Assembly (NCBI GenBank): GCA_003241645.1
Contig: QFOX01000009.1
Coordinates: forward strand, 2,534-66,533
Length of the DNA: 64,000 bases
DNA from: Azospirillum brasilense
Lineage (GTDB): Bacteria > Pseudomonadota > Alphaproteobacteria > Rickettsiales > UBA3002
Direction: 5' to 3'
In this document: one piece after another, positions 9,111 to 63,967 of the stretch
Layout of the letters: every line of letters begins with the position of its first letter
Numbering within the stretch: position 1 is the stretch's first letter
The notes under the pieces: generated by a model
Databases searched by the model: none
What the model was told of the DNA's origin: nothing
Seen by the model: only the letters and a program-made list of their open reading frames with translations
Position numbers and translations under genes: made by a program

Positions 9111-9733
9111 TAGAAGGGCTCGTTCTTGAAGACGGTGCGGGCACTGATCATCACCACCCCGGTAGTGCCACCCTTACCGTCGGCACTCCCGAAATATTGG
9201 GCGAGGTAGGGAATCAGAACTTTCCATGGGTAGATCACGCGCACTTCCACCACGTCACCCGCGTTACCCACGGCTGCGGCGGCCGATGCGCCCTGATAGC
9301 CGGTGGCGCCATTGACTTCCTCGAACGGGCCCACATTGCCGGGGCCGCACACGGCCGGAGCAGAGCTAGGCTTTTGCGGATCGAACAAGCAAATATCCGG
9401 CAGGAAGGTGCCGCCATTGGCCAGCGTGTTGATCTGCACGATCGTATCGTCGCCACGAATGAGCGATTTGGATTTCTGCTGCACCACGCAGCGCATGTAG
9501 GACGCGCGGTCGGCCGTGCCGGCGCACGGGCCCGCGCTGTTGGACTTGCCAAGGCTGGATTCGCGCGCCGCCTGCATGGTGATCGCCTCCACCGCAATGC
9601 GGTGGAACATGTACAGCCCGAATTCAAGAATACCGAGGAACAGCAGGAAGAACACAGGGGCAACGAACGCGAACTCAATAATGTTCGCGCCGCGCTCATC
9701 GTTCAGAAAGCGTTGGAAGAATTGCTTGCTCAC
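9110..9733 (-). CDS. TadE-like pseudopilin (cassette 1, first gene)
   Basis: FFQRFLNDERGANIIEFAFVAPVFFLLFLGILEFGLYMFHRIAVEAITMQAARESSLG. I chose the GTG start at 9733, which is preceded by the SD aagaggaa. The longer ORF to 9868 would overlap rodA. Confidence 0.75.
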   Translation of the reverse strand: MSKQFFQRFLNDERGANIIEFAFVAPVFFLLFLGILEFGLYMFHRIAVEAITMQAARESSLGKSNSAGPCAGTADRASYMRCVVQQKSKSLIRGDDTIVQINTLANGGTFLPDICLFDPQKPSSAPAVCGPGNVGPFEEVNGATGYQGASAAAAVGNAGDVVEVRVIYPWKVLIPYLAQYFGSADGKGGTTGVVMISARTVFKNEPF

Positions 9734-9751
9734 CGGTTCCTCTTTCGTAGC

Positions 9752-9760
9752 ATTATACCA
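9752..9760 (-). promoter_or_regulatory. Possible extended -10 promoter element (TGgTATAAT) in the rodA-tadE spacer
   Basis: Minus-strand ...aaattttggTATAATgctacgaaagaggaaccGTG. A perfect TATAAT with an upstream TG lies ~20 nt before the GTG start. Confidence 0.4.
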
Positions 9761-9801
9761 AAATTTTAACTTTTTCCCACCTGTTTTTGCCCTTTTTTCG
9801 G

Positions 9802-36163: not shown

Positions 36164-36210
36164 AGGGCCGCAGGGCTAATGCTCCAAGACAAGAAGAAGC
36201 AGGGCAGCAC

Positions 36211-36239
36211 TTGCGTATCGCACGGTAATCGCCTATATT
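36211..36239 (+). promoter_or_regulatory. Putative sigma-70-type promoter of ssrA (TTGCGT-N17-TATATT)
   Basis: Hexamers at 36211-36216 and 36234-36239 with a 17-nt spacer. A start ~36245 would give an acceptor piece of ~80 nt ending at the CCA at 36325. Confidence 0.4.
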
Positions 36240-36357
36240 TGACCTGCTTCTTCGGAAGCTATGGTGATAAACGCGACGTGGAATAGTCGGATTGGACCCG
36301 GGGGCAGTACCCGGCAGGTCCACCAGAATTTGAATGCTTCTCGATAAGCCGGGCAGC

Positions 36358-36399
36358 AAGGTCAGCAGACCTTGCCAGCCATGAGCCCGCGAAGCGGCA
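36358..36399 (+). repeat. Partial copy (C) of the three-hairpin repeat inside the tmRNA intervening segment
   Basis: aagGGTCagcaGACCttgccagccatgagccCGCgaaGCGgc matches hairpins 1 and 2 of copies A and B, then diverges. Confidence 0.6.
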
Positions 36400-36528
36400 T
36401 TCCATGGTGAATCCAGCAGGATGAGCCGGGAATGAACAAAGTTTGGGCCTGAAGTAGGATCGACAACCGCAATAAAGGCTTCGCTTTTGCCCGGGATGAT
36501 TCCGCCGTTATCGGGTTGTTTTTTAAGT

Positions 36529-36597
36529 GCAAACGACAACGTAGCACTCGTTGCAGCTAACGACAACAACGTCGTAGCAGCCCGTCTCGCCGCTTAG
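36529..36597 (+). other. tmRNA tag reading frame: ANDNVALVAANDNNVVAARLAA-stop
   Basis: The resume codon GCA is preceded by the U/A-rich uuuuuaagu. There is no in-frame stop until TAG at 36595. The frame ends in LAA, as expected for ClpXP degrons. Confidence 0.7.
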
Positions 36598-36704
36598 TGT
36601 GGCCTGACGAGTTCTAGCTCGTAAACGCGGCCCGAGGGGAGCCGGGCAACAGAATCCCCTCACTGATATTTCGCAGAACCCATGACACCATCGACTATCC
36701 CGGT

Positions 36705-37640: not shown

Positions 37641-38111
37641 CTAAATACGGCGGATGCCGCCTTGCTGTTCCTGCTCGGCTACCACGGCGGCCTCCAGCGC
37701 ATTCTGCAGCACGGCCGGATAGAATTCGCAGATATAGTTGCGCGTACGCGGCGCGAGTTCTTTGTGCTCCATCAGCGCGTTGCGCAACACGGGCTCGCTC
37801 TCGCGGAAACGCTCCTGCAGGTCGCTGATGCGCTCGGGCAGTTCCCAGCCGGCATGTTTCTCAAGCCCATAAGCCGCCATGGCACCGGCATGTTCGGTGG
37901 TCAGCAGGCGCCGCGTGGCGGTCGCCATGGCCTGCTCCAGCAGGTCGTGATGCTGGTTCACTTCCTCGCGCACGGTATCGTGCACGTTCTCGTATTCCAG
38001 AATGCCCGAGAGGAACCCCGTGGCCGAGGCATCGGCCTGCGCCACCAGCGTGTTCAGCAACCGCGCCGTGACCGGCAGGTTGCCGCCGCGCTCGCGTTGG
38101 GCAAAACTCAT
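37641..38111 (-). CDS. Hypothetical protein (156 aa)
   Basis: The ORF is translationally coupled (4-nt overlap) to 38108..38623. Helical composition, no recognised motif. Confidence 0.5.
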   Translation of the reverse strand: MSFAQRERGGNLPVTARLLNTLVAQADASATGFLSGILEYENVHDTVREEVNQHHDLLEQAMATATRRLLTTEHAGAMAAYGLEKHAGWELPERISDLQERFRESEPVLRNALMEHKELAPRTRNYICEFYPAVLQNALEAAVVAEQEQQGGIRRI

Positions 38112-38623
38112 CGCCCCTGCCCCTGTGCCTGCGGCGGCAGCGTCGCCCCGAAAAGGGCATGCACCGTCTGCGCGATCACGTGCGGGTAGGCGTCGCGCAG
38201 CACGCTGTGCGCCTGCCGGCGCGAGGCGCTCCAGCTGTCGCCCTGCAAGCCTTCGCGGGCCAGCATGGCACCGAACGTGTCCTGCCCGTCGCGCAGGCGG
38301 CCGATCAGCTCGACCACATCCTGCGCCGGGCGGTTCTCGGGCGGGCGACCAGCCGGGTGGCTGGCGCTGCGGGGTTGCGCACGCGCATGCGCGGCCAAAT
38401 GATCGATGGTCTTGCTGAGCGCCGCATGGGCGCGGGCATGGGTGCGCTCGGTCACATCGGCGCCCTGACTATCCTTCACCTGCGGCAATTGCTGCTGCAG
38501 CACCACATCAAGGTAATCGGCCGCGGCCATGCTGCAGTTGCCGAGCACCTGCTCGTTCACCGGCCCATTCTTCGGCACCGATGGTGGCGCGGGCTGCACG
38601 CGCGACTGAAAGCTTTGGTCCAT
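38108..38623 (-). CDS. Hypothetical protein (171 aa)
   Basis: The ORF is divergent from ettA and overlaps the downstream ORF start. No recognised motif. Confidence 0.5.
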
Positions 38624-38706: not shown

Positions 38707-40362
<1,656 letters not shown>

Positions 40363-40404
40363 TTTCTTCACTGATCCGTAACCCATTGGCGTTACCATAG
40401 GCGC

Positions 40405-41670
40405 ATGATCGCCCCGACACATGCTGCACGCCGTTTCTCCGACGACGAACCCGTTGCGTTGGCAAAACACGCGATCGTGCTGCTGGAACAGCATCTGGCG
40501 CAGCGCTATGGCGTGTATTGGGAAGGCGGCGCTGAAGTGGAATTCACGGCCCGCGTGCGCCCCGGGCTTGACCACGCGCGCATGCGCTTTGGCACCCGCG
40601 ACAGCGCAGCCGTCAAGCAACATGGCACCGGGGCATCGGCCAGCAAGCACCCGTTCCACAAAGACGCATGGTTCCCCGACAGCCGTTATGTCACCTACGG
40701 TTACCGCGAATATGGCGGGTACGGACCGCACGCCATGCTGGAAGCCGTGCTCACCCACGAGCCTGCCGGGGCCGATGGCACGCCCCTGCCCCATCACGGC
40801 ATGCAGCTCGCCCGCAATATCGAGGCACTGCGCTACCAGCTGCGCAGCCCGGCACCGGGCTACAAGAACACGCCGGTGCAGGCCCCCAACCCGGTGCAGT
40901 ACCACCTGACGGAAGCCACCCGCCAGGCGCAGGCTTTGTGGCACACCCTGCTGCCGACCGCGGGCGCACCCCCGGCCGAGAACCCCCATCGCGCGGGGCG
41001 CTGGCAGGCATTCCACCGCACCCGGCTGGCCGAGGTGGCGTTCGGCACCTTCCTGCCCGAGCACGAAGCGCACGAAGCCATGACGCTTGGCCTGCACATC
41101 AACAGCAGCCTGAAAGACATAGAAACCGGCGAAAGCGTGCACCCCACCCGCGAACACACGGCCAACCTGTTGCACGCCACCCAGCGCATGATGCATGCGG
41201 GCGGCTACCTGCTCAACCCCACCGACGATAACTGGCAGCGCTGGTCGCACCGCACCGCCGACGCGCCGTTCAGCCGCTACCAAGGTGAGCGCAATGCGCG
41301 CGAGGTGAAGGTGGTGGATGGTGCCGGCGGCTTCTACATGGAAAACAAATTACCCCCGGCCAATTGCAACCCCTACTACGCCCTGATGCTGCAATTCATG
41401 GCGTTCGAGGTCGCCTTGCGCGAGCAGCATTTCCAGCGCACGGCCGAGGGCTACAGCCTGCAGAGCGCCCCCACGGGGCCGGTCATTCCCGCCGCATCGC
41501 CCGCGCAGCAGAAGCAGCAATTCTTCGATGGCGCGCTACAGGGGGAACTGAACCGGCTGGAGGATGGCCTCGGCGATCGATTCCTTGCCGCCATTGCCCA
41601 TATGCCGCCCGGCACCGAGAAGACCGCCATGGATAAACGCCACGCCGAAAAAGGCGAGCATCTGCGCTGA
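40405..41670 (+). CDS. Divergent glutamine synthetase / glutamate-cysteine ligase superfamily (carboxylate-amine ligase-like) protein, paralog 1
   Basis: The ordered motifs are GAEVEF, EAVLTHEP, GLHINSSL and ENKLPPANCNPYYALML. They parallel the GS blocks ExEF, HHE, GxHxHxSL and ExRxPxxxxNPYLA. It aligns block by block with 42574..43797. Confidence 0.55.
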   Translation: MIAPTHAARRFSDDEPVALAKHAIVLLEQHLAQRYGVYWEGGAEVEFTARVRPGLDHARMRFGTRDSAAVKQHGTGASASKHPFHKDAWFPDSRYVTYGYREYGGYGPHAMLEAVLTHEPAGADGTPLPHHGMQLARNIEALRYQLRSPAPGYKNTPVQAPNPVQYHLTEATRQAQALWHTLLPTAGAPPAENPHRAGRWQAFHRTRLAEVAFGTFLPEHEAHEAMTLGLHINSSLKDIETGESVHPTREHTANLLHATQRMMHAGGYLLNPTDDNWQRWSHRTADAPFSRYQGERNAREVKVVDGAGGFYMENKLPPANCNPYYALMLQFMAFEVALREQHFQRTAEGYSLQSAPTGPVIPAASPAQQKQQFFDGALQGELNRLEDGLGDRFLAAIAHMPPGTEKTAMDKRHAEKGEHLR

Positions 41671-41696
41671 ACGGGCGCAGGCCGTGGCATGCCGCC

Positions 41697-42482
41697 TTAG
41701 AAGTTCGCGAAAAAGATCATCGTGCAGGCATTGGCGCTGCTGTTGGTCAACTGGTAGTCGGACCCCGTATCGCTGCTGGACGCGGCCGTGGTGCAGCTGG
41801 TAATGCGCCCGCCATGCACTTTGCCGCGGCCGGGCTTGCCGTCATCCATTTTGGTGTCGAGGTTCCAGGCTTCCTCGGCTTTGAGGATAGGGTTGGTCGT
41901 GGGTTCGAGGGTACGCTGCGCGCCAAGGAAATACACGTTCGCGGGATAGTTCAACCCATCGAAGAACGACCCGCCACTGATCACGATATCGCCGCGGATC
42001 AGTGTCCAGCCTGCATTGCTGATTTTTGAGCGCGGTATGTTGACGCCGATCGTCGACGTATCCGCATCGCCGCCATTCGCCCCGGTATAGGTGCCCTCCA
42101 CCAGTCCGGCGAGCGCCAGTTGCTGCCAGTGGCGGAACACCTCGCCTGTCGCCCCGGCGGTGCTGGAGCCCACTTCCATGTTGCCGTCCCCATCGCCATT
42201 GCAGGTGCCGGGCGTGGCGGCCGTACCGCTATCGCCACTGCAAAGCGTGTTGTCCTTGCCCCAGAAGGCGGTGGCATTGGTCATGTCGCCGGGAAGGGCG
42301 AAATATTTGTCGCGGAACGTTTGCGTGGCGGTGACCCAGCGCTGGTATTCGGTGCTGGCGGCCCGCAGTTCGGCCGCGCGGATCAGCGCCTGTCCACCAA
42401 GGATGCCCCCCGTAAGCAAGCCAAGAATCACGAGAACAATAGAGAGCTCGACAAGCGAGAACGCATGCTGATTTTCCGACAT
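41697..42482 (-). CDS. Prepilin-like protein (paralog 2 of 5)
   Basis: MSENQHA-FSLVELSIVLVILGLLTGGILGGQALIRAAELR, FRDKYFALPGDM, C-x12-C-NGDGDG, WQQLALAGLVEGTYTG, EEAWNLDTKMDDG, and a C-terminal Cys pair. Confidence 0.8.
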   Translation of the reverse strand: MSENQHAFSLVELSIVLVILGLLTGGILGGQALIRAAELRAASTEYQRWVTATQTFRDKYFALPGDMTNATAFWGKDNTLCSGDSGTAATPGTCNGDGDGNMEVGSSTAGATGEVFRHWQQLALAGLVEGTYTGANGGDADTSTIGVNIPRSKISNAGWTLIRGDIVISGGSFFDGLNYPANVYFLGAQRTLEPTTNPILKAEEAWNLDTKMDDGKPGRGKVHGGRITSCTTAASSSDTGSDYQLTNSSANACTMIFFANF

Positions 42483-42573
42483 GGGTGAAGCATAGCATTA
42501 TTTCCCCCGGGGGGCATGCATATTTCTGGAAACAGTCATGAAACCTTAAACATTCTGCTTTACAATCAGCAGC

Positions 42574-43797
42574 ATGACGGAACACACGGACAAGCTTTCC
42601 TCCCGCGCTTCCCTACGCGACGACCCGCCCGTGGCGCTGGCGAAGCGCGCCATCAAGCTGCTGGAAGCGAAGATCCGGCAGGAATTCGACCTAGAATTGC
42701 CGCTTGGCGTGGAGCTGGAATTCGGCGTGCTCTCCAACCAGCGCCAGCATAAGGCCTCGCCCGCCGAACAGTATGGCGTGCCGGATGCGCTGGGCAAGAT
42801 CAGCAACCACACCGCCTCGGCCTACCGCCACCCCAAGAACCGCGATGCGTGGTTCCCCGAGAGCCGCCGCGTGGCGTACAGCTACCGCGAAGAAAGCAAC
42901 GACGACCGCTGGGACATGATGGAAGTGGTGCTGACGCATGAGCCCCGCGGGCAGGACGGCACGCGCCTGCCGATCGATGCGCTGGCCACCGCCCGCGCCG
43001 TGGAAGCGCTGCGCCACCAGCTGCACCAGCCCTCCAGCGGTTACATGCCGCGCAAGCATGGCGCTGGTATCCCTACGGCGCAGCTGGGCGTACGCTACTG
43101 GCAGCAGCAACGCCGCGACACCATCGATATGCTCGTCACCGAGGCCGTGGTGCCCGGCACCTTCAACAGCCATGGCATGCACCTGAACATGAGCCTGGTG
43201 GATGCCTCCACGCAGGAGAACGTCATGCTGCGCTCAGGCCTGAGCGCGGAGACGGTCACCAACATGCTGCGCCAGGGCATCGGGGCGGTGCAGATGGAAA
43301 ATTTATGGCTGGTCTGCCCGCATCGCCGTTCCATGGAGCGGCAATCCATGCGCATGGGCCCGATCAGCGACGTGATGGGCCGGGTGAAGAACAAGCGCGG
43401 CCAGAAAGATTATGTGGAAAATTCGCTGCCGGGGGCCGACTGCAACCCCTATTACGCCATCATGCTGCAACTGGCGGGCACCTATCTGGCGCTGAAAGAG
43501 GCGCAGTTCGGCTATGATTACACGACGCAGCAGCATGTGCTGGGCAACCCCGATTACGCGCAGGACCTCAAGGCACCGCAGCCCGGCGAGAAGCAGGTGA
43601 ATGCGCTGACACTGAACGATTTGCAGGCAAATTTCCGTGCGGGGTCGCACCTGCGTGACGCGCTGGATGCCTGCGAGCCCGGGCTGGGCGATGCGTTCCA
43701 TCACGCCATCGAGCAGACCCCACCGGGCTACGAGAAAAGCGGCATGGACAAACTTCAGAAAACGCGGCGCACACTAGCGCCGCAGCGCGATCGTTAG
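42574..43797 (+). CDS. Divergent glutamine synthetase / glutamate-cysteine ligase superfamily (carboxylate-amine ligase-like) protein, paralog 2
   Basis: GVELEF, MEVVLTHEP, GMHLNMSL and ENSLPGADCNPYYAIML occur in the same order as in 40405..41670. The N-terminal (DDPPVALAKRAIKLLE) and C-terminal (PPGYEKSGMDK) blocks are also shared. Confidence 0.55.
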   Translation: MTEHTDKLSSRASLRDDPPVALAKRAIKLLEAKIRQEFDLELPLGVELEFGVLSNQRQHKASPAEQYGVPDALGKISNHTASAYRHPKNRDAWFPESRRVAYSYREESNDDRWDMMEVVLTHEPRGQDGTRLPIDALATARAVEALRHQLHQPSSGYMPRKHGAGIPTAQLGVRYWQQQRRDTIDMLVTEAVVPGTFNSHGMHLNMSLVDASTQENVMLRSGLSAETVTNMLRQGIGAVQMENLWLVCPHRRSMERQSMRMGPISDVMGRVKNKRGQKDYVENSLPGADCNPYYAIMLQLAGTYLALKEAQFGYDYTTQQHVLGNPDYAQDLKAPQPGEKQVNALTLNDLQANFRAGSHLRDALDACEPGLGDAFHHAIEQTPPGYEKSGMDKLQKTRRTLAPQRDR

Positions 43798-44381
43798 GCC
43801 TTGCGGGCCGCCTGCTTCTGCAGGGCGCCGATCAGGTAATCCAGCCCTTTGGAACTGACGATGGAGTTGAACTCCGAACGCTGGGTCGCGCGCAGCGAAA
43901 CACCTTCCACGGCAATGTCCACCACCTTGTAGCTCTTGGCGTCCTCGCGCAGCGTGTAATCCACGTAGATCGGCGCGCTACCGGCATCGATGATCTCCAT
44001 GGTCACCTGATAGGTGCCATCGTCGCCGCGGGCGTTCTTCAGGTTGTATTTCTGGCCGCTATATTTGGTCAGGCGGCCCGCATAGTTCTTGATCACGAAC
44101 GGCTGGTAGGCGGCAAGGTAATCGTTCTGCTGCTGCTCGGTGGCGGTGCGCCAGTGGCGGCCCAGCACGTATTTGCCTACGTACGGAATATCCACCGCGC
44201 CGGAGAAAACATCTTCCAGCTTGCTGAGCTTGCTGGCCTTGCTTTCATCGGTCTTGATGATGGAGAGCACGTCGCCCGCCACCCCGTCGATGAATTTCTG
44301 CGCATCGGCCGGGCTGCCCGCAAGCGCCGGCTGTGCAGCAACGCTGCAGGCCAGCACGAGCGATAGGAAAAAACGCTTCAT
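43794..44381 (-). CDS. mlaC: MlaC/Ttg2D-family phospholipid-binding periplasmic protein
   Basis: Signal peptide, then FIDGVAGDVLSIIK...VDIPYVGKYVLGRHWRTATEQQQNDYLAAYQPFVIKNYAGRL, typical of the toluene-tolerance Ttg2D/MlaC family. It is adjacent to mlaA. Confidence 0.75.
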   Translation of the reverse strand: MKRFFLSLVLACSVAAQPALAGSPADAQKFIDGVAGDVLSIIKTDESKASKLSKLEDVFSGAVDIPYVGKYVLGRHWRTATEQQQNDYLAAYQPFVIKNYAGRLTKYSGQKYNLKNARGDDGTYQVTMEIIDAGSAPIYVDYTLREDAKSYKVVDIAVEGVSLRATQRSEFNSIVSSKGLDYLIGALQKQAARKA

Positions 44382-44392
44382 GCTTCTCCCGC

Positions 44393-45127
44393 TTACTTCG
44401 CTTCGTATTCGGCGGGGGTCGCGTTGCTCTTATCGAAATCGTTGTGGCGATTTGCGATCTGGGCATCACGGCGCTGGCTGTAGATGCTGCGGAAGGTCAC
44501 GTACGAATCCAGCGAGGTTTCGTAGATGTCGTCGATCGGATCGATCAGGCGCTCACGCTCGACCAGTGCCTGGCCCGCCGCCATGTAGATGCGGTCATCC
44601 TGCTCGAGGTAGTAGCTGAACGGATCGGTGAACCAGTCCACCACCATGCCAACCGCGTCGCGGCCATTGCTCGGCCCGATCAGCGGCAGCACAACGTACG
44701 GACCCGAACCCACGCCCCAGACCGCGAGGGTCTGGCCGAAATCTTCGCGGCGCTCTTTCAGGCCAGCGGTGGTGGCCACATCGTTCAGACCCGCGATACC
44801 CACGGTGCTGTTCAGCGCAAAGCGCCAGAAGCTGGTCAGGCCCTGCTCCATGTCGCCCTGCAGGAAGGCGTTGAGCATGTTCACCGGCTCACGCAGGTTG
44901 TCCGAGAAGTTGCCGATGCGCTCACGCACGGGGTCCGGCGTGATGTAGCGGTAACCCTTGGCCACCGGGGCGAAGGCATACTGGTCAACCACTTCGTTGA
45001 AGGATTGCACCCCACGGTTCATGCCCTCGAGCGGATCTTCGTCCGGGTTCGAGGCGCAGGCGGTGAGGGAAAGCGCGCTGAGCAGCAGCGCCGCGAGGAT
45101 CGTGTGTTTCTTAGCCGAAGAGGTCAT
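44393..45127 (-). CDS. mlaA: Outer-membrane lipoprotein MlaA/VacJ
   Basis: Lipobox LSLTAC, then DPLEGMNRGVQSFNEVVDQYAFAPVAKGYRYITPDPVRERIGNFSDNLREPVNMLNAFLQG... is the VacJ family signature. The start is at 45127. Confidence 0.88.
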   Translation of the reverse strand: MTSSAKKHTILAALLLSALSLTACASNPDEDPLEGMNRGVQSFNEVVDQYAFAPVAKGYRYITPDPVRERIGNFSDNLREPVNMLNAFLQGDMEQGLTSFWRFALNSTVGIAGLNDVATTAGLKERREDFGQTLAVWGVGSGPYVVLPLIGPSNGRDAVGMVVDWFTDPFSYYLEQDDRIYMAAGQALVERERLIDPIDDIYETSLDSYVTFRSIYSQRRDAQIANRHNDFDKSNATPAEYEAK

Positions 45128-45341: not shown

Positions 45342-46286
45342 ATGTCACAGGGGTTGCCGATGAGCATCGCGGCCCACCAGCGCGCCTTGCTTTCCGCCGC
45401 CCAGATGGGGCAGCTGCAGGCCCTGCGTGAGCTCTATGGCGCGGCTGCGCCGCATGTGTCGTTCGAATTCTTCCCCCCCAAAACGCCCGAGGCCGAGGAA
45501 AAGCTCTGGGGCGTGATCGGCACGCTGGCGCCGCTGAAGCCGCGCTTTGTTTCCGTGACCTACGGCGCGGGTGGCTCCACGCGCGAGCGCACGCACAGCA
45601 CGGTGGCCCGCATTCGCCGTGAAACCGAACTGACGCCGGCCGCCCACCTCACCTGCGTCAACGCCACGCGCGAGCAGATCCGCGAAGTGGCCCAAAGCTA
45701 TTGGGATGCAGGCGTCAAACACATCGTCGCGCTGCGCGGCGACATGCCCGATGGCGGCGGCTACGTGCCCACGCGGGGCGGTTATGAATACGCCGACAGC
45801 CTCGTCGCCGGGCTGAAAGACGTGGCGGATTTTGATATTTCGGTGGCCGCTTACCCCGAAATGCACCCCCACGCGCTCAGCGCACAGGCTGACATCGACC
45901 ACCTGAAACGCAAGTTCGATGCCGGGGCGAACCGCGCCATCACCCAGTTCTTCTTTGATGTGGACGTGTATCTGCGCTTCATGGACCGCGTGCGCGCCGC
46001 CGGCATCGAGGCGGAGATCGTGCCCGGCATCCTCCCCGTCACGAACGTGGCGCAGCTCAAGCGCTTTGCGGCCTTCAGCGGCACCAGCGTGCCGGCATGG
46101 CTGGGCACGCTGTTCGAAGGGCTGGACGAAAAGCCCGAGCTGCGCAACCTTGTGGCCGCCATGGTCACGGCCGAACAATGCCGCATGCTCATGCTCAACG
46201 GCATCGACCATTTCCATTTCTACACACTGAATCGCGCCGAATTGACGCAGGCAATTTGCCATGTGCTCGGTGTTCGTGTAAGCTAA
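45342..46286 (+). CDS. metF: 5,10-methylenetetrahydrofolate reductase
   Basis: VSFEFFPPKTPEAEEKLW...FVSVTYGAGGSTRERT...HLTCV...NRAITQFFFD are MetF motifs. The start is ambiguous between 45342 and 45360. Confidence 0.92.
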   Translation: MSQGLPMSIAAHQRALLSAAQMGQLQALRELYGAAAPHVSFEFFPPKTPEAEEKLWGVIGTLAPLKPRFVSVTYGAGGSTRERTHSTVARIRRETELTPAAHLTCVNATREQIREVAQSYWDAGVKHIVALRGDMPDGGGYVPTRGGYEYADSLVAGLKDVADFDISVAAYPEMHPHALSAQADIDHLKRKFDAGANRAITQFFFDVDVYLRFMDRVRAAGIEAEIVPGILPVTNVAQLKRFAAFSGTSVPAWLGTLFEGLDEKPELRNLVAAMVTAEQCRMLMLNGIDHFHFYTLNRAELTQAICHVLGVRVS

Positions 46287-46291
46287 AGCGC

Positions 46292-47062
46292 ATGAGAAAC
46301 GCTTTCTCCCTCGTTGAACTCTCGATCGTGCTGGTCATCCTTGGCCTGCTGACGGGCGGCATCCTTGGCGGGCAGTCACTCATCCGCGCGGCGCAGATCC
46401 GCGCCGTGACCACGGAAATGAACCGCTTTGCGACGGCGACGATGACCTTCCGTGACAAGTATTTTGCGGTGCCCGGCGATATGAGCAATGCGATCAGCTT
46501 CTGGGGGAAAGCCGCCGGAACCGGCACCGATTCCACCTGCGCCGATTTCGCCAGCACAAGCCCGGCAACGTGCAACGGGAACGGGGATGGTCGCATCGGC
46601 ACTGCGCCGGAAGTGTATGAAGAGATGCGCTATTGGCAACATCTGGCGAATGCGGGACTCATCGAAGGCAGTTACACAGGCACTTACACGTCGGGCGTAG
46701 GGTACGCATTCGGCGTCAATACGCCGCAAAGCAAGCTGTCGCCCGCCACATGGTATCCATGGCATTTCGGCAACCTCGCGGCCACGACCAGTGATTTCGG
46801 CGGCAGTTTTGGGAATGTGCTGGAGATAGGCGCATGGGATGGCGGCTCCACAACACCCCCTGTTCTGCGCCCCGACGAAGCGTGGAACATCGACGTTAAA
46901 ACCGATGACGGGGCCCCCGCAAGCGGCAAGGCCATTGCAGGCAAAGGCACCACTGCGCGGCCCTGCACCTCGAATGCCAATAACATATCGGATGCAAATG
47001 CCACCTATAACCTGACCAACACCGGTGTTATCTGCTACTTGCGCTTTACAAATGCGTTCTAG
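46292..47062 (+). CDS. Prepilin-like protein (paralog 3 of 5; first of tandem array)
   Basis: MRNA-FSLVELSIVLVILGLLTGGILGGQSLIRAAQIR, FRDKYFAVPGDM, C-x10-C-NGNGDG, WQHLANAGLIEGSYTG, DEAWNIDVKTDDG. The ATG lies 5 nt after the metF stop. Confidence 0.82.
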   Translation: MRNAFSLVELSIVLVILGLLTGGILGGQSLIRAAQIRAVTTEMNRFATATMTFRDKYFAVPGDMSNAISFWGKAAGTGTDSTCADFASTSPATCNGNGDGRIGTAPEVYEEMRYWQHLANAGLIEGSYTGTYTSGVGYAFGVNTPQSKLSPATWYPWHFGNLAATTSDFGGSFGNVLEIGAWDGGSTTPPVLRPDEAWNIDVKTDDGAPASGKAIAGKGTTARPCTSNANNISDANATYNLTNTGVICYLRFTNAF

Positions 47063-47095: not shown

Positions 47096-47842
47096 ATGAA
47101 ACAGGCTTTCTCCCTCGTTGAACTCTCGATCGTGCTGGTCATCCTTGGCCTGCTGACGGGCGGCATCCTTGGCGGGCAGTCGCTCATCCGCGCGGCGGAG
47201 CTGCGCAGCATCCCGGTCGAGTACAACAAATACATGACCGCCATGCAGACCTTCCGCGACAAGTATTTCGCCCTGCCCGGCGACATGAGCAACGCCACCA
47301 AATTCTGGACGGCGGCGGCCAGCTGCCCCGGTGATTCCACCACGCCCGCGACCGGCCCGGCCACCTGCGATGGCGACGGCAATGGGATCCTCGGCGTGGT
47401 CGAGCGCTACCGCGTCTGGCACCATCTGGCGAACGCGGCGCTGATCGAGGGCACCTACACCGGCGTTCCGGCCACCGCCACCCCGGCACATCTGAGCGTG
47501 GGCAGCAACGTGCCGCGCTCCAAGCTCAGCAATAGCGGCGTGCAGATCTCCAAACTCTCCGACACCAGCAGCGGCATTCTCTACAACGCAGGCGATTCGC
47601 GCCACTCGCTTATGTTCCTCGGCACCGCGACCATTCAGGTTTCCAACCCTTCGGCCATCCTGCTGCCGGAAGAAGCATGGAACATCGACACGAAAATGGA
47701 TGACGGCGCGCCGGGCACGGGCAACGTCCTGAATTACAACACCGCCAGCACCACGGTGGGCACCTGCACCACCAGCGCCAGCGCCTATGCGCTCACGCTC
47801 ACCAGCAAGGCCTGCGCGCCCTATATTATGTTTAATTTTTAA
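47096..47842 (+). CDS. Prepilin-like protein (paralog 4 of 5)
   Basis: MKQA-FSLVELSIVLVILGLLTGGILGGQSLIRAAELR, FRDKYFALPGDM, C-x13-C-DGDGNG, WHHLANAALIEGTYTG, EEAWNIDTKMDDG. Confidence 0.82.
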   Translation: MKQAFSLVELSIVLVILGLLTGGILGGQSLIRAAELRSIPVEYNKYMTAMQTFRDKYFALPGDMSNATKFWTAAASCPGDSTTPATGPATCDGDGNGILGVVERYRVWHHLANAALIEGTYTGVPATATPAHLSVGSNVPRSKLSNSGVQISKLSDTSSGILYNAGDSRHSLMFLGTATIQVSNPSAILLPEEAWNIDTKMDDGAPGTGNVLNYNTASTTVGTCTTSASAYALTLTSKACAPYIMFNF

Positions 47843-47892: not shown

Positions 47893-48687
47893 ATGAAAAA
47901 ACAGGCTTTCTCGCTCGTTGAACTGTCCATCGTCCTCGTCATCCTTGGGCTGCTCACCGGCGGTATCCTCGGCGGGCAGTCGCTCATCCGGGCCGCGGAG
48001 CTGCGCTCCATTACGGCGGATTTCAGCCGCTACAACGCCGCCTTCCGCACCTTCCAGGATAAATATTTCGCCTTCCCCGGCGACATGCGCAACGCCACCG
48101 CCTTCTGGGGGTTTGCGGCCGGCACCGCGGGCAACGACGCCACCTGTTTCAACGCCACCCAGACCGGAGCGGGCACCTGCAATGGCGACGGCAACGGCGA
48201 CCTGATCAGCCCGCCCACCGCTTCGGCCACTAACCCGCAAGGCGAAACATTCCATGCATGGAAGCAGATGGCCAATGCCGGGTTGGTCGAAGGCACCTAC
48301 ACGGGCTATCGCGGCACCGGCGGGGCCTATAACACCACGCCGGGCGTGAATGTACCGCGTGGGCGCATCAGCAATGCCGGGTTCTCCCTGTGGTCGAACG
48401 CCGCATCGCATATCGATGCGAACTGGTTCCCCACCAAATCCGGCCCGTTGCTGATGTTCGGCACCTCGACCACCGGCATCACCGAATCGCCCGCCATCAA
48501 ACCCGAGGAAGCATGGAACCTCGACACCAAACTGGACGATGGGCGGCCCGGCTTAGGCAATGTGCGCACGCACAAACAGGGCAGTTCGTTCACGCCGAAT
48601 TGCACCGATACGACCGATCCGAACACCGCGGCTTATGTGCTGAGCAGCAACGGCGTGCTGTGCAACATCTACATGTTCATGCTGTAA
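47893..48687 (+). CDS. Prepilin-like protein (paralog 5 of 5)
   Basis: MKKQA-FSLVELSIVLVILGLLTGGILGGQSLIRAAELR, FQDKYFAFPGDM, C-x10-C-NGDGNG, WKQMANAGLVEGTYTG, EEAWNLDTKLDDG. Confidence 0.82.
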   Translation: MKKQAFSLVELSIVLVILGLLTGGILGGQSLIRAAELRSITADFSRYNAAFRTFQDKYFAFPGDMRNATAFWGFAAGTAGNDATCFNATQTGAGTCNGDGNGDLISPPTASATNPQGETFHAWKQMANAGLVEGTYTGYRGTGGAYNTTPGVNVPRGRISNAGFSLWSNAASHIDANWFPTKSGPLLMFGTSTTGITESPAIKPEEAWNLDTKLDDGRPGLGNVRTHKQGSSFTPNCTDTTDPNTAAYVLSSNGVLCNIYMFML

Positions 48688-50276: not shown

Positions 50277-51014
50277 ATGGCCCAAATTCCCCCGCGCATC
50301 GGCATCACACTGGACTCAGAGCCCGCTGGCGGCTGGTCGAAATACCCGTGGTATGCGCTGCGCGAAAATTATTGCGGCATCATCGCCCGCCATGGTGGCG
50401 TGCCGCTGGCGCTGCCGCACGAGCCCGAACTGGCCGAGGCGTATCTTGATACCATCAGCGGGTTGGTCATCACCGGCGGTAATTTCGACGTGCCGCCCGA
50501 GATGTACGGCGAAGCCACCACCAGCGAAAAGGTCACCACCAAACCCCGGCGCAGCCAGTTCGAATGGGCCATTACGCAAGGCGCGGTGAAGCGCAACATG
50601 CCGATTCTGGGTATTTGCGGCGGGCAGCAATTGCTCAACGTCATCCTCGGCGGCACGCTGATCCAGCACATCCCCGACGCAGTGCAGAACGCGCTGGCGC
50701 ACGAGCAGCCCAACCCCCGCCACGAGGCCGGGCACGAAGTGGCCATCGTGCATGGCACGTTGCTTTCGGATATCGTCGGCAAACCGCGCATCGCGGTCAA
50801 CTCGGCGCACCATCAGGCCGTGGCCAAACCCGCCCCCGGGGCCATCGTGAATGCGCGTGCGGAAGATGGCGTCATCGAAGGCATCGAATACCCCTCGCAC
50901 CCGTTCTGCCTTGGCGTGCAGTGGCACCCGGAATTCTCCATTACCAGCGCCGATGATAAGATCATCACGGCGTTTATCGCGGCGGCGACGCATTATGCGC
51001 GCGATGCGCGCTGA
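50277..51014 (+). CDS. Class I glutamine amidotransferase-like, peptidase C26 / PuuD (gamma-glutamyl-GABA hydrolase) family
   Basis: PILGICGGQQLLNVILGG (nucleophile Cys), NSAHHQAV, VIEGIE, GVQWHPEF. Confidence 0.8.
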   Translation: MAQIPPRIGITLDSEPAGGWSKYPWYALRENYCGIIARHGGVPLALPHEPELAEAYLDTISGLVITGGNFDVPPEMYGEATTSEKVTTKPRRSQFEWAITQGAVKRNMPILGICGGQQLLNVILGGTLIQHIPDAVQNALAHEQPNPRHEAGHEVAIVHGTLLSDIVGKPRIAVNSAHHQAVAKPAPGAIVNARAEDGVIEGIEYPSHPFCLGVQWHPEFSITSADDKIITAFIAAATHYARDAR

Positions 51015-59179: not shown

Positions 59180-62100
59180 ATGAACGCGAAATCCACCACG
59201 GCTTATTCCACCCTGCACCAATCGCTGATCGATGCCATCCTCGGCACCGCAAAAGCGAAGAAGCTCAGCGCTTCGCAACGGGGGTTCGCCCAGCAGTTCT
59301 ATGCCCTCACCACCGTGAGCGACCTTGAAGAGATCGAGCCCGCTTCGGCCGCGAACATCGCCATCAATTACGAAGCCTTTGCCAGCGTGCGCAAAGCCGG
59401 TGCGCCGAAGCTTTCGGTCACCGTTGGCAAATCGCCGTTCAGCGGGCGGCTGCGCACGGTCATCATGGCCGTGAACGACGACATGCCCTTCCTGGTGGAT
59501 TCGCTCTCGGGCCTGATCAACGCGCAGGGCCTGACCATCTACCGCGTGCTGCACCCCATCCTTGCCGTGAAGCGCGATGCTAAAGGCAAGCTCACCGGCT
59601 TCGAGCGCCCCGACACCGCGCCCGCCAGCTGGGCGCGCGAATCGATGATCTACATCGAATGCTCGCCACTGCCGGTGAACCTGACGCCGGATGACCTGAT
59701 GGAGCATATGCAGAGCGCGTTCCAGCACGTGGCCTACGCCGTGGCCGACTGGAAGCCCATGCAGGCGCGCATGCAGCATTTGATCGGCGACTATGCCAGC
59801 GCCAGCAAAGGCAACAGCGCCGCCGACACGCGTGAGATCCACGACCTGCTCAGCTGGCTGGCCAGCAACCATTTCATCTTCCTCGGCCTTGCCGAATACG
59901 CACCGGACAGCAAAGGCACGCTGACACAGAAAAAAGGTGGCGCGCTGGGCGTCTATCGCCTGCCTGCCGAGCAGGACGATGCCATTGAATACGCCAACAC
60001 CCCCACCACGACGGATGCGATCAGCGTGCTGAAAGCCTCGCAGCTGAGCCGCGTGCACCGCCGCGTGCCAATGGATTACATCGTGCTCAAACGCACCGAC
60101 AGCAAAGGCAAACCTGCCGGGGAAACCCGCATCCTCGGCCTTTTCACCTCGACCGTTTACTACCGCGAGACCGACCAGATCCCGTTCATTCGCCGCAAGG
60201 CCGCCCGCGTCATGGCGCGTGCCGGGTTCAGCCCCAGCAGCCATTCCGGCAAAGCGCTGAAGACCACGCTGGAATTCCTGCCCCGCGACGAACTGTTCCA
60301 GATGGACGAGGAATCGCTGTTCCGCATGGCGATGCGCATCGTGTCGCTGGAAGCCAAGCCGCAGGTGCGCATCTTCATTCGCCGCGACGCGTTCGAACGC
60401 TTCATCAGCGCCATGGTCTATGTGCCGCGCGAGCAATTCTCCACCGCCGTGCGCGAAGAGATCGTGCGCGTGCTGGAAACCACGTATGCGGGCAAGTTCA
60501 CCGCCTTCTACACGCAGGTGACCGATTCGCCGCTGGCGCGCGTGACCATTCAAATTGAAACCACCCCCGGTGCCATTCCGCAGGTGGACGAGGACGCGCT
60601 GGAGCTCAAGATCATCGCGCTGGCCAGCCGCTGGAGCGACGCACTGCGCGACGCCATCATCCACCGCCTTGGCCACGATCAGGGCGAACAGCTGGCGCAG
60701 TCCTACGCGAACGCGTTCCCGCCCGCCTACATCAACACGCACAGCGCGCAGGCCGCCGCGTTCGATATTCGCCGCGTGCAGGAATGCGCCACCGGCGACG
60801 GGCTGGCGCTGGAGCTGTTCCGCGCCAAGGGCGACGCGGCCGACCAGCTGCACCTGAAATGCTACTCGCGCGATCTGAAGCTTGAGCTGTCGAACATCAT
60901 TCCGCTGCTCGAAAACATGGGCTGCACCGTGGTGGATGCGACGCCCTACATCGTCACCCCGCTGGCACCGCTGCCGCCGGTGCTGCTGCGCGACTTTACG
61001 CTGCGCGTGCCCAGCGCCGTGGAGATGGATATCGACGCGGCCAAAGCCCGCATCGAAGACGCGATCGAGCGCATCTGGCGTGCGCAGACCGATAACGACA
61101 CGCTGAACACCCTTATCTTCTCGGCCGGGCTTTCCGCGCGCGACGTGGAGATCCTGCGTGCCTATAGCCGCTACCTGCAGCAGCTGAACTTCCCCTACAG
61201 CCAGCCCTTCATTGCGCAGGCACTGGGCCAGCATGCCAGCATCGCACGCCAGCTGGTGCAGCTGTTCCATGCGCGCTTCAACCCCGCCACCAAGAAGCGC
61301 GACGAGCTGCAGCAATCGCTGAAGAACGACATTGAAACCGCGCTGGAGGCGGTGACCAACCTTGCCGAAGACCGCGTGATCCGCCGCATGCTGGCGCTCA
61401 TGTTCGCCAGCCTGCGCACCAACTTCTACCAGACCGACGCGGCGGGTAACGCCAAGCCGTACCTCTCCATCAAGATCCGCTCGCGCGAAGTGCCGGACAT
61501 GCCGTTGCCCGTGCCCTACGCCGAGATCTTCGTAACCTCGATGCGCATGGAAGGCATTCACCTGCGCGGTGGTGCGGTGGCGCGCGGCGGCCTTCGCTGG
61601 TCCGACCGGCCGGAGGATTTCCGCACCGAAGTGCTGGGGCTGGTGAAAGCACAAATGGTGAAGAACGCCGTGATCGTGCCGCAGGGCGCGAAGGGCGGTT
61701 TCATCCTGCGTCGCCCCCCGGCGGAGCGTGATGCGTTCATGGCCGAAGGCGTGGAATGCTACAAAATGTTCCTGCGCGGCCTGCTGGATATTACCGACAA
61801 CATCGTGACCGGCAAACTGGTGCCGCCCGCCAGCACCGTGCGCCATGACGGCGACGATCCCTACCTCGTGGTCGCGGCCGACAAGGGCACGGCCACTTTC
61901 TCCGACACCGCGAATGGTGTCGCCGCCGACTACCAGTTCTGGTTGGGCGACGCGTTCGCTTCCGGTGGTTCGGCGGGCTACGACCACAAAGCCATGGCCA
62001 TTACCGCGCGCGGCGGCTGGGTGTCGGTCGAGCGCCATTTCCGCGAAATGGGCAAAGACATCACGCATGAGCGCTTCACCGCCATTGGCGTGGGCGACAT

Positions 62101-63967
62101 GTCGGGCGACGTGTTCGGCAACGGCATGCTGCTTTCGAACACCATGCAGCTCGTCGCTGCCTTCAACCACCGCCATATCTTCGTGGACCCCACGCCGGAT
62201 GCGGCAAAAAGCTTTGCCGAGCGCCAGCGCCTGTTCGCGCTGCCGCGCAGCGGCTGGAACGATTACGACGCCAAGCTGATCAGCAAGGGCGGCGGCGTGT
62301 TCGAGCGCACCGCGAAATCCATTACCCTCACGCCGGAAATGCGCAGCGCGCTGGGCACCGACGCGACCAAAGCCACGCCGGACGAGCTGATGCGCATCAT
62401 CCTCAAAGCGCCGGTGGACCTGCTGTGGAATGGCGGCATCGGCACCTACGTGAAAGCCGCCAGCGAAACGCACGAGCAGGTGGGCGACCGCGCCAACAAC
62501 GCCGTGCGCGTGAACGGTGCGGAATTGCGCTGCAAGATCGTCGGCGAAGGGGGCAACCTTGGTTTCACCCAGCGCGGCCGTATCGAATACGCGCGCACCG
62601 GCGGGCGCATTAACACGGATGCGATCGATAACTCGGGCGGGGTGGATTGCTCCGACCATGAGGTGAACATCAAGATCGCCCTCAATGCCGCGCTGCAGGC
62701 GGGCAAGACCACCCGCGCCAAACGCGATGCGCTGCTGAAGAAAATGACCGACGAGGTGGCGCACCTCGTGCTCATCGACAACAAACTGCAAACGCAGGCG
62801 ATCTCGATTGCCGAGCTGCAGGGCACGGCCATTCTGGAGCCTGCCGAACAGCTCATTACCACGCTGGAGGGCACCGGCATCCTCAACCGCGAGGTCGAGT
62901 TCCTGCCGGATGCGCGCAGCTTCGGCGAGCTTCGCGCCAGCAAATCCGGCCTCACGCGCCCGGAAATCGCGGTGCTGCTGGCCTACGCCAAAATGTCGCT
63001 CTCGCTCGAGCTGAAGGAATCCACCCTGCTGGATGCACCCTATTTCGAGCAGGACCTGCTGCGCTACTTCCCCGATGCGATGGAGAAACCCTACATCGAG
63101 GATATTCGCCGCCACCGCCTGCGCCGCGAGATCGTGGCCACCATGATCACCAACTCCATCGTCAACCGCACGGGCTTCAGCTTCGCACACAGCCTGATGC
63201 GCGCGACCGGCCTTGGTGCCGGCGACATTGCACAGGCCTACGTGGCCACGCGCGATGCGTTCGCCCTGCGTGCGCTGTGGAAGGACATCGAAGCGCTGGA
63301 CGGCAAGGTGGATGCGGTGCTGCAATCGCGCCTGTTCTCCATGGTCAATGGCTTCATCGAACATAGCTGCCGCTGGTTCCTGCAGCATGTGCCGCAACCC
63401 ATGGACATGAACAAGGTCATGGGTGCGTATGCCGACGGCATCGCGCTGGTCGAGAAGAACGCCGAATCCTTCATGACCGACACGCTGCGCAAGGCCTACG
63501 ACAAAGGCACCGACCAACTGGTGATGCAGGGCGTGCCCAAAGCGGTCGCCACGCGCATCGCCAAGCTGGAGATCCTCGCCTCGGCGTGCGATATCATCGA
63601 CATCGCGCGCGAAACGAAACTGCCGATCGAACAGGTGGGCAAGCTCTACTTCGAGCTGGGCGCGGCCCTGCGCCTTGGCTGGCTACGCCGCAGCGCACAG
63701 GAACTGCAGGCCGAGAATTACTGGCAGCAACTGGCCATCAAATCGCTGGTGCAGGAGCTCTATCAGGCGCAACGCCGCTTCACGCACGAGATCATCGCGC
63801 GTTACGGCAAGCAGAAAGGCCATGCTGGCGAACATTGGGCGCAGGCGGCGGCCGGCCCCATGGCGCGCTACCAGACCTTCATCGAAGAGCTGCGCACGCA
63901 ACAAAGCCTCGATTACCCGATGCTTATTGTTGCCCTGCGTCAGGTGCAGTGGATCATCAGTCAGTAG
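59180..63967 (+). CDS. NAD-specific glutamate dehydrogenase, large (~180 kDa) class
   Basis: 1595-aa ORF with the characteristic large-GDH catalytic core (RGGLRWSDRPEDFRTEVLGLVKAQMVKNAVIVPQGAKGGF...GPDVYLVVAADKGTATFSD-like...GDMSGDVFGNGMLLS...NIDNSGGVDCSDHEVNIKI). Confidence 0.95.
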   Translation: MNAKSTTAYSTLHQSLIDAILGTAKAKKLSASQRGFAQQFYALTTVSDLEEIEPASAANIAINYEAFASVRKAGAPKLSVTVGKSPFSGRLRTVIMAVNDDMPFLVDSLSGLINAQGLTIYRVLHPILAVKRDAKGKLTGFERPDTAPASWARESMIYIECSPLPVNLTPDDLMEHMQSAFQHVAYAVADWKPMQARMQHLIGDYASASKGNSAADTREIHDLLSWLASNHFIFLGLAEYAPDSKGTLTQKKGGALGVYRLPAEQDDAIEYANTPTTTDAISVLKASQLSRVHRRVPMDYIVLKRTDSKGKPAGETRILGLFTSTVYYRETDQIPFIRRKAARVMARAGFSPSSHSGKALKTTLEFLPRDELFQMDEESLFRMAMRIVSLEAKPQVRIFIRRDAFERFISAMVYVPREQFSTAVREEIVRVLETTYAGKFTAFYTQVTDSPLARVTIQIETTPGAIPQVDEDALELKIIALASRWSDALRDAIIHRLGHDQGEQLAQSYANAFPPAYINTHSAQAAAFDIRRVQECATGDGLALELFRAKGDAADQLHLKCYSRDLKLELSNIIPLLENMGCTVVDATPYIVTPLAPLPPVLLRDFTLRVPSAVEMDIDAAKARIEDAIERIWRAQTDNDTLNTLIFSAGLSARDVEILRAYSRYLQQLNFPYSQPFIAQALGQHASIARQLVQLFHARFNPATKKRDELQQSLKNDIETALEAVTNLAEDRVIRRMLALMFASLRTNFYQTDAAGNAKPYLSIKIRSREVPDMPLPVPYAEIFVTSMRMEGIHLRGGAVARGGLRWSDRPEDFRTEVLGLVKAQMVKNAVIVPQGAKGGFILRRPPAERDAFMAEGVECYKMFLRGLLDITDNIVTGKLVPPASTVRHDGDDPYLVVAADKGTATFSDTANGVAADYQFWLGDAFASGGSAGYDHKAMAITARGGWVSVERHFREMGKDITHERFTAIGVGDMSGDVFGNGMLLSNTMQLVAAFNHRHIFVDPTPDAAKSFAERQRLFALPRSGWNDYDAKLISKGGGVFERTAKSITLTPEMRSALGTDATKATPDELMRIILKAPVDLLWNGGIGTYVKAASETHEQVGDRANNAVRVNGAELRCKIVGEGGNLGFTQRGRIEYARTGGRINTDAIDNSGGVDCSDHEVNIKIALNAALQAGKTTRAKRDALLKKMTDEVAHLVLIDNKLQTQAISIAELQGTAILEPAEQLITTLEGTGILNREVEFLPDARSFGELRASKSGLTRPEIAVLLAYAKMSLSLELKESTLLDAPYFEQDLLRYFPDAMEKPYIEDIRRHRLRREIVATMITNSIVNRTGFSFAHSLMRATGLGAGDIAQAYVATRDAFALRALWKDIEALDGKVDAVLQSRLFSMVNGFIEHSCRWFLQHVPQPMDMNKVMGAYADGIALVEKNAESFMTDTLRKAYDKGTDQLVMQGVPKAVATRIAKLEILASACDIIDIARETKLPIEQVGKLYFELGAALRLGWLRRSAQELQAENYWQQLAIKSLVQELYQAQRRFTHEIIARYGKQKGHAGEHWAQAAAGPMARYQTFIEELRTQQSLDYPMLIVALRQVQWIISQ

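Follow-up and report, generated by a model that had tools for sequence, protein, structure and literature searches.

We think it fairly probable, from sequence comparison and structural models, that two open reading frames (ORFs) in the 64,000-nucleotide stretch of contig QFOX01000009.1 analysed here (the window) encode two paralogs that separated long ago, members of an undescribed family of proteins made up of the catalytic domain of glutamine synthetase (GS) only, and that these proteins would act as ATP-dependent ligases with an acceptor that is probably not ammonia. The two ORFs, A (40405..41670, + strand; 421 amino acids [aa]) and B (42574..43797, + strand; 407 aa), are true paralogs, showing 33% identity over ~95% of their length (BLASTP E=1e-49), a similarity far above chance. 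A preliminary description of this DNA had reported the paralogy and had listed a series of shared motif blocks, and both ORFs and all of the blocks were found in the translations. The motifs common to A and B include DD[EP]PVALAK.AI.LLE, E[VL]EF, DAWFP[DE]SR.V.Y.YRE, M[LM]E[AV]VLTHEP, G[LM]H[IL]N.SL, EN[KS]LP.A[ND]CNPYYA, and PPG.EK..MDK, and A carries an extra insert of ~30 aa at residues ~150-195. A and B are genuine coding genes under purifying selection. The ratio of nonsynonymous to synonymous substitution rates (dN/dS) was 0.11 for B, compared with an ortholog 84-85% identical to it, a value that marks B as a real coding gene under purifying selection, and 0.30 for A; an ortholog of A, P0014 (52-53% identity), occupies the same slot of a related locus, L001. 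A six-frame scan of the window with the family hidden Markov model (HMM) found no third copy, and no canonical GS gene (glnA) was found in the window by six-frame scanning.

Relationship to glutamine synthetase

In searches with single sequences, B matched the Pfam family Gln-synt_C (PF00120) at 30 bits (cutoff, 24), over profile positions 146-261 only, and A had no direct Pfam match. Neither protein matched an NCBIfam model at E<=1, including those for GlnA (TIGR00653), gamma-glutamylputrescine synthetase (GGputSyn), and other GS types, and neither gave a PADLOC match. A phmmer search of PDB sequences with B found nothing meaningful, and GS was reached there only by profile. When 64 family members were scanned singly against Pfam, 50 matched Gln-synt_C (best E=8e-14), and none matched Gln-synt_N, GCS2 (PF04107), Glu_cys_ligase (PF04262), Pup_ligase (PF03136), or Amidoligase_2 (PF12224) at E<=0.1. 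A profile built from 14 members reached GS proteins of ordinary length at E=2e-7 in a search of 5.8 billion proteins and GS-type chains in the PDB with a best E of 3e-6; the sole non-GS chain found in the PDB at E<=1 was an unrelated one of 71 aa (E=0.74). In the alignments to PDB chains, GlHlNvSl of the profile corresponds to GMHCNQSL, SleR to SYKR, and iENklPpAdcNPYYA (ENxxPxAxxNPYYA) to EVRNPDPAANPYLA / VEVRNPDPAANPYLA. HMM-HMM alignment (hhalign) of the family to nine genuine proteins of GS length paired query residues 24-364 with GS residues 123-433 (Prob 99.65%, E=3.6e-25), a span that covers the entire GS catalytic domain from its first helix onward. AlphaFold2 models of B (predicted local distance difference test score [pLDDT], 83.8; predicted template modelling score [pTM], 0.88) and A (pLDDT, 85.6; pTM, 0.87) agree with this result, in that the top 50 Foldseek matches of both models are all GS or GS-like structures, with a probability of 1.0 and E values from 4e-11 to ~1e-8 (best E, 4e-11 for B and ~7e-10 for A). 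Among the top structural matches are NpaA1, a GS-like enzyme of 1-naphthylamine, and Csal_0679.

On these profiles and models, A and B are stand-alone GS catalytic domains (PF00120) that belong to GS proper and not to the glutamate-cysteine ligase (GCL)/YbdK branch. The preliminary description had placed them in a joint GS/GCL superfamily. The GS fold and the occurrence of the catalytic blocks in GS order stand, and both the HMM-HMM comparison and the structure predictions that it had proposed as checks led to GS, the Foldseek top 50 holding GS structures only. The GCL part does not stand, as the family shows no affinity to GCS2/YbdK, GshA, PafA, or Amidoligase_2. GCS2/YbdK and GshA are GS-fold ligases of similar size that likewise have no GS-type beta-grasp domain and that carry a GhExE signature (PMC2588565), but none of the 64 members matched their Pfam families, and neither YbdK nor GshA appeared in the profile search of the PDB or in the Foldseek top 50, and such an affinity was rejected. 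The statement that everything outside the catalytic blocks is unfamiliar can also be withdrawn, since residues 24-364 align to the whole GS catalytic domain.

The preliminary description could recognise no N-terminal beta-grasp domain in A or B, and this domain, of ~100 residues, is missing altogether from the family. The chain opens with the catalytic domain's first helix, no member scanned matched Gln-synt_N, and the GxExEF motif, where it could be matched, falls at residues ~31-56. An exhaustive search yielded 125 full-length family proteins with <45 residues before the start of the profile and only 9 proteins with a GS-like N-terminal extension. The complete absence of the beta-grasp domain is the defining novelty of the family. 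In GS, the beta-grasp domain of the neighbouring subunit both supplies the ammonium pocket (Asp50' and Ser53') and closes over the active site. An enzyme without this domain would therefore probably accept a bulkier amine in place of ammonia and would have a quaternary structure unlike the rings of GS. The whole chain aligns to the catalytic domain of type I GS (GlnA), the type to which all of the top Foldseek matches belong. Type I GS differs in possessing the beta-grasp domain with its Asp50'/Ser53' ammonium site, and the family has segments of its own that are not found in GS, WFPESRxVxYxYxE and, toward the C terminus, LNxLEPxLGDRF…PPGxE. Moreover, unlike type I GS, the family is accessory, fast-evolving, and multi-copy, and neither A nor B reaches an NCBIfam GS model.

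The nearest full-length relatives are proteins named only as GS family proteins, which lie below the model cutoffs for GlnA, type III GS, and gamma-glutamylputrescine synthetase (153-231 bits against the GGputSyn model; cutoff, 650). PuuA, GmaS, PA5508, and NpaA1 belong to this group of relatives. They share with the family the motif E-[IV]-x-L-x-H and the spacing E-x-[RK]-x-x-x-A-D-x-NPY, and some of the family's loci have a PuuD-like hydrolase nearby. They differ in keeping the N-terminal domain, and the family is not accompanied by Puu-type pathway genes. The shared motifs suggest that the family probably arose from PuuA-like gamma-glutamyl-amine ligases by loss of the N-terminal domain.

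Active-site residues and predicted reaction

Active-site residues were mapped through the profile-versus-PDB and hhalign alignments, and their conservation was counted in the 64-member alignment, whose mean column identity is 21%. GS positions are given in the S. typhimurium/E. coli numbering of the established literature. Five residues of B are invariant in all 64 members: E47 and E49 (GS E129 and E131), E117 (E220), R256 (R321, which binds the alpha-carboxylate of glutamate), and E282 (E357). At least 90% of the members conserve H203 (H269), N205 (H271, which is Asn in Gram-positive GS), and E106, the inferred equivalent of E212, as well as H122 and G201, and S207 (S273) is kept in 56 of the 64. 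All of these residues are also present in A, as E44, E46, E102, E113, H118, G229, H231, N233, S235, R279, and E313. Equivalents of all six GS metal ligands (E129, E131, E212, E220, H269, and E357) are invariant or nearly so. The position of GS R359 is occupied by Arg or Lys in 42 of the 64 members and by Lys (K315) in A. The E327 flap is not recognisably conserved.

Given that the metal ligands and the Arg that binds glutamate are fixed or almost fixed in an alignment of 64 highly divergent members, we think that A and B are far likelier to be active ATP-dependent carboxylate-amine ligases than pseudoenzymes. The preliminary description had named missing metal and ATP ligands as the mark of a pseudoenzyme; all six metal ligands are in place, and only the R359 equivalent is lost, in the sub-lineage of B, so that we set the pseudoenzyme reading aside. 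The chain of the predicted enzyme starts at the helix that opens the GS catalytic domain, a PuuA-like ancestor having probably lost its N-terminal domain. With ATP and two divalent metals, the enzyme would phosphorylate a carboxylate; the likeliest one is the gamma-carboxylate of L-glutamate or of a glutamate-like moiety whose alpha-carboxylate is free. The acyl group would then be passed to an amine, probably one bulkier than ammonia, and the manner in which the site is closed, like the oligomer, would differ from that of GS, the beta-grasp domain being gone. The GhExE signature and the conserved arginines seen here are those by which the carboxylate-amine ligase superfamily is defined (PMC2588565).

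Several observations weigh against this interpretation. The Foldseek TM-scores are modest (0.41-0.49), with root-mean-square deviations of 7-11 Å. The assignment of E106 to E212 falls in a gap of the hhalign alignment and is based on near-invariance and on strand position, E106 being the last residue of the strand that pairs with the E117 strand. In B and its close orthologs the R359 equivalent is Ser (Ser284 in B), so that a basic residue has been lost in that sub-lineage, and the region of R339 and R344 aligns poorly, so that the arginines that contact ATP and phosphate in GS can be traced only in part. The PuuA-like origin is drawn from motif sharing and best matches, without a supported phylogeny, and among the loci compared there is no conserved operon partner that would define a pathway.

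GS-fold ligases without a beta-grasp domain are already known (GCL, YbdK, and PafA). For GS, loss of this domain together with conservation of the active site is unusual: the GS active site is formed by the catalytic domain and the neighbour's beta-grasp domain, and the family implies another mode of closure, another oligomer, and almost certainly another amine acceptor. It would thus widen the range of reactions known for one of the most thoroughly studied enzyme folds, although its practical value will be limited until a substrate is found.

Distribution and evolution of the family

The family comprises at least 125 clusters at 50% identity, all of them metagenome proteins. An exhaustive profile search of 1.84 billion cluster representatives gave 61 matches at E<=1e-30 and 142 at E<=1e-10, compared with which word-indexed homolog searches, returning only 12 and 5 proteins, understate its size; a scan of metagenome loci with a 24-sequence alignment gave 3 loci. 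Family members are named only 'hypothetical protein' in all sources, the family is not mentioned in the libraries and literature searched, and a literature search on truncated GS or GS lacking the N-terminal domain found nothing. Two very long proteins, P0070 (4424 aa) and P0116 (2757 aa), were considered as toxin fusions and judged irrelevant, P0116 being a tandem two-domain GS. According to Pfam, P0116 contains three tandem complete GS units (Gln-synt_N plus Gln-synt_C) and a hexapeptide-repeat region. P0070, known from the profile alone, has six family-profile matches at ~550-aa spacing, the same repeat pattern as in P0116. Both proteins are unusual in themselves, though unrelated to the family.

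Only 1 of 185,579 species-representative genomes matched, that of the metagenome-assembled genome Alphaproteobacteria bacterium UBA6189. This genome has been assigned to Ca. Mitibacteraceae, a family that branches deepest in the Rickettsiales and is apparently free-living, and that is characterised by high GC content, complete amino-acid biosynthesis, type IV pili, and an rvh type IV secretion system (T4SS) (Schön et al., bioRxiv 10.1101/2021.08.31.458344). The window fits this description, with a GC content of 62% and genes for LeuA, IlvB, a large NAD-dependent glutamate dehydrogenase, and Tad proteins. It also carries a two-piece (permuted) transfer-messenger RNA gene of alphaproteobacterial type at 36207..36664 (+ strand; 229 bits), just upstream of sspB, and its neighbouring proteins are 52-78% identical to their UBA6189 counterparts over most of their length. 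The bearers of the family are basal, free-living Rickettsiales-like Alphaproteobacteria related to UBA6189. The family thus marks accessory, fast-diversifying genes in a group that is studied for the origins of host association.

The GS-like genes evolve much faster than the genes around them. Compared with the closest relative, the housekeeping neighbours are 95-99% identical (RluB, 87%), whereas B is 84% and the prepilin-like gene at 41697..42482 (pilin-1) 73% identical; compared with L001, ABC-F is 93% and the C26 hydrolase described below 86% identical, whereas A is 52% identical; and compared with L019, ABC-F is 89% and the GS-like protein 27-28% identical. The dN of B exceeds that of most of its housekeeping neighbours by a factor of 4 to 19. 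In a family tree, a rough neighbour-joining tree without support values, A falls with the L001 protein and outside the B group, suggesting that A and B separated before these species did and that copies were later lost differentially. A second locus with two copies, L010 (40% GC; L010:1392-2669, - strand, and L010:10001-11263, + strand, 7 kb apart), appears to represent an independent duplication, since its copies cluster together in the tree. The gene of UBA6189 that lies in the same slot falls in a distant subclade. With its evolution faster than that of housekeeping neighbours, its repeated duplication, and its residence in variable slots, the family behaves as an accessory, diversifying gene family and not as a core nitrogen-assimilation enzyme.

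Genomic context and candidate acceptors

In the clade to which the window belongs, the GS-like genes lie in a conserved block with the order SspB, TadA, ABC-F, slot 1, MlaC, MlaA, MTHFR, slot 2, MotB, MotA, C26, RluB, RsmD, and the GS-like and prepilin-like genes occupy the same two variable slots of this block. In the window, slot 1 (ABC-F to MlaC) holds A, a pilin-like gene, and B, and slot 2 (MTHFR to MotB) holds three pilin-like genes. L003/L004 has a pilin-like gene and a B-type gene in slot 1 and two pilin-like genes in slot 2; L001 has an A-type gene only and an empty slot 2; L008 has a GS-like gene in slot 1 and one pilin-like gene in slot 2; L009 has a GS-like gene and a pilin-like gene in slot 1, slot 2 lying beyond the sequence covered; and in L019 slot 1 is empty and the GS-like gene sits in slot 2. 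Elsewhere, the order is ABC-F, GS-like gene, toxin-antitoxin pair, and RimK-like gene in L020 and ABC-F, C26 (minus strand), GS-like gene, and MreBCD in L018. In L021 (L021:139-3040), a GS-like gene stands between ruvB and ruvA on the opposite strand, breaking the usual ruvCAB order, and looks like an orphan insertion, and in L010, L011, and L017 unrelated housekeeping genes lie beside the GS-like gene. The gene for the EttA-like ABC-F ATPase (38707..40362, + strand; start inferred from 551-aa homologs) ends 42 nt upstream of A, and adjacency of ABC-F and a GS-like gene recurs in L001, L008, and L020, with gaps of 42-51 nt; this adjacency is inseparable from plain synteny.

A gene 6.5 kb downstream in the same block (50277..51014, + strand) had been described as encoding a PuuD-type Peptidase_C26, similar to gamma-glutamyl hydrolases. 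Its best NCBIfam match, gamma-glutamyl-gamma-aminobutyrate hydrolase (121.7 bits; cutoff, 266), agrees with that description, and this hydrolase of the class I glutamine amidotransferase type is a candidate partner of the GS-like enzymes. One form that the predicted ligase reaction could take is a Puu-like gamma-glutamylation cycle, in which the GS-like enzyme would glutamylate a small amine (a polyamine or arylamine) and the C26 enzyme would later hydrolyse the product. Consistent with such a cycle, the closest relatives of full length are GS family proteins of PuuA-like type, the 1-naphthylamine enzyme is among the top structural matches, and every Mitibacteraceae-like locus has a PuuD-like C26 gene in this block, the gene being syntenic in L001, L004, L007, L008, and L019. 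In addition, a second gene of this kind (L018:8925-9890, - strand; 321 aa) is divergently adjacent to the GS-like gene of L018 (L018:10001-11167, + strand). The L018 protein is a different paralog, with 30% identity to the C26 of the window, and of the contexts found, L018 alone points to a ligase/hydrolase pair; the adjacency is a weak but real hint of paired gamma-glutamylation and deglutamylation. Against the cycle, Mla, MTHFR, and MotAB genes separate C26 from the GS-like gene in the clade, as expected of plain synteny, and C26 evolves slowly (97% and 86% identity) where the GS-like genes evolve fast (84% and 52%). Furthermore, no C26 gene lies within 10 kb of the GS-like gene in L010, L011, L017, or L021 or in the 2.5 kb downstream of it in L020, no Puu-type oxidase, dehydrogenase, or transporter genes are nearby, and both C26 proteins score well short of the PuuD equivalog cutoff. 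Within the window's clade, the C26 gene is uninformative about a link, since it is part of a conserved housekeeping block. Overall, we regard a Puu-like cycle as unlikely.

It is distinctly less likely that loss of the lid produced an open-site ligase that glutamylates macromolecules, either the fast-evolving pilin-like proteins or, by way of the rvh T4SS, proteins of competitors or hosts. The precedent for a protein-directed ligase is PafA/Dop, which has the GS fold without the GS N-terminal domain and whose open site joins the gamma-carboxylate of glutamate to a protein lysine (PMC2588565). PafA/Dop differ in being proteins of Actinobacteria, whereas the family is alphaproteobacterial, matches no Pup_ligase model, and has no Pup-like or proteasome genes in the loci compared. 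If true, this reading would mean that PafA-like tagging or an effector activity evolved independently within GS proper, in free-living ancestors-in-kind of Rickettsia.

Very unlikely, in our view, is a minimal but genuine GS that assimilates ammonia. In its favour, the family has kept the metal ligands, the Arg that binds glutamate, and the GxHxNxS motif for ATP, and the window has no canonical glnA, but the beta-grasp domain, with its ammonium site and its part in closure, is missing in all members. The expansion into paralogs and their very rapid divergence are unlike a core enzyme, there are no glnB or ntr neighbours, and no NCBIfam GS model is reached. In addition, genomes of Ca. Mitibacteraceae have been reported to encode all amino-acid biosynthesis, so that a canonical GlnA is to be expected elsewhere in the genome.

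The gene between A and B (41697..42482, - strand; 261 aa) is prepilin-like, with an N-methylation motif and Ala at -1, and, as had been noted in the preliminary description, it is bracketed by A and B on the opposite strand and belongs to a set of five such genes within the window, the others lying at 41..811, 46283..47062, 47096..47842, and 47893..48687 (all + strand). Members of this multi-copy prepilin-like family have 250-265 aa and Ala or Gly at -1 and match only the N_methyl motif in Pfam; their N termini are near-identical, reading FSLVELSIVLVILGLLTGGILGG, after which comes a conserved F(R/Q)DKYFALPGD motif, and they also occur in L004, L007, L008, L009, and L010 (L010:20231-20929). The bracketed gene is the fastest-evolving gene at the locus, with 73% identity where neighbours have 95-99% and a dN/dS of 0.16.

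A PafA-like ligase acting on these neighbouring pilin-like proteins is highly improbable. Without the beta-grasp lid the active site should be open, both gene families are fast-evolving and share the two variable slots, a pilin-like gene lies next to a GS-like gene in the window, in L003/L005/L014, in L009, and in L013, and in L010 a pilin gene of this family is found 9 kb away from a distant GS-like member. However, no pilin-like gene adjoins the GS-like gene in L001, L008, L011, L017, L018, L019, L020, or L021, and with multi-copy pilin-like genes at a density of five per 64 kb, proximity is expected by chance. The pilin C termini (…FANF, …FTNAF, …MFNF, and …MFML) have no Pup-like terminal Glu or Gln, and the GS-like proteins lack a signal peptide, while the mature domains of pilins are located in the periplasm or outside the cell. 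Bracketing of a pilin-like gene by two GS-like copies was seen in this genome only among the loci compared. The pilin neighbour and the duplication are lineage-specific, and the functional tie proposed in the preliminary description is not supported by comparative context; an obligate link is rejected, given that the adjacency is not conserved and the pilin-like genes are dense. An enzyme that modifies Klebsiella fimbriae was also considered as a parallel and rejected, as it has the ATP-grasp fold and not the GS fold.

Least credible of all is an inactive GS-fold protein or a secreted effector or toxin of the rvh T4SS that evolves fast through conflict: the fast evolution, repeated duplication, and orphan insertions (such as that between ruvB and ruvA in L021), the loss of the basic residue from B, an ankyrin-repeat gene near the GS-like gene of L011, a basic C-terminal tail, and the proposal that the rvh T4SS of basal Rickettsiales targets other microbes would all fit, but five catalytic residues are invariant and five near-invariant among the 64 members, the models show the tail as an ordered helix, neither a conserved immunity-like neighbour nor a PADLOC match was found, and an effector survey of these lineages mentions no such protein. 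Lengsin (PDB 2j9i), a divergent homolog of type I GS with a non-GS role, is a weak match of the family profile (E=0.63); it keeps the N-terminal domain, whereas the family instead keeps the catalytic residues strictly. The preferred reading remains that of a GS-derived ligase with an acceptor probably bulkier than ammonia.

Some further features of the region were noted. A scan of 40200..44500 for promoters and terminators gave background levels. A sigma-70-like match, ATGAAA-17-TACAAT, at 42538..42566 (+ strand) ends 8 nt 5' of the ATG of B and is not significant; B has no visible Shine-Dalgarno sequence at its start and may be translated from a leaderless transcript, with the promoter scan at background level. 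Between tadA and ABC-F are two ORFs of 156 and 171 aa on the minus strand (37641..38111 and 38108..38623), the former with no detectable counterpart in related loci and the latter with a counterpart in the closest relative only; unannotated ORFs of other sizes occupy this interval in L001, L003, and L019, making it a further variable spot. The large NAD-specific glutamate dehydrogenase (59180..63967, + strand; 1595 aa), composed of Bac_GDH_CD, ACT, and helical domains, is encoded 15 kb from the GS-like genes, to which nothing connects it. A TadG-like gene (Tad plus VWA; 7210..9868, - strand) and a probable TadE gene (10929..12755, - strand) lie beside the gene for PBP2, and an Mre/PBP2/RodA/TadE/TadG cluster is also found directly downstream of the GS-like gene in L018.

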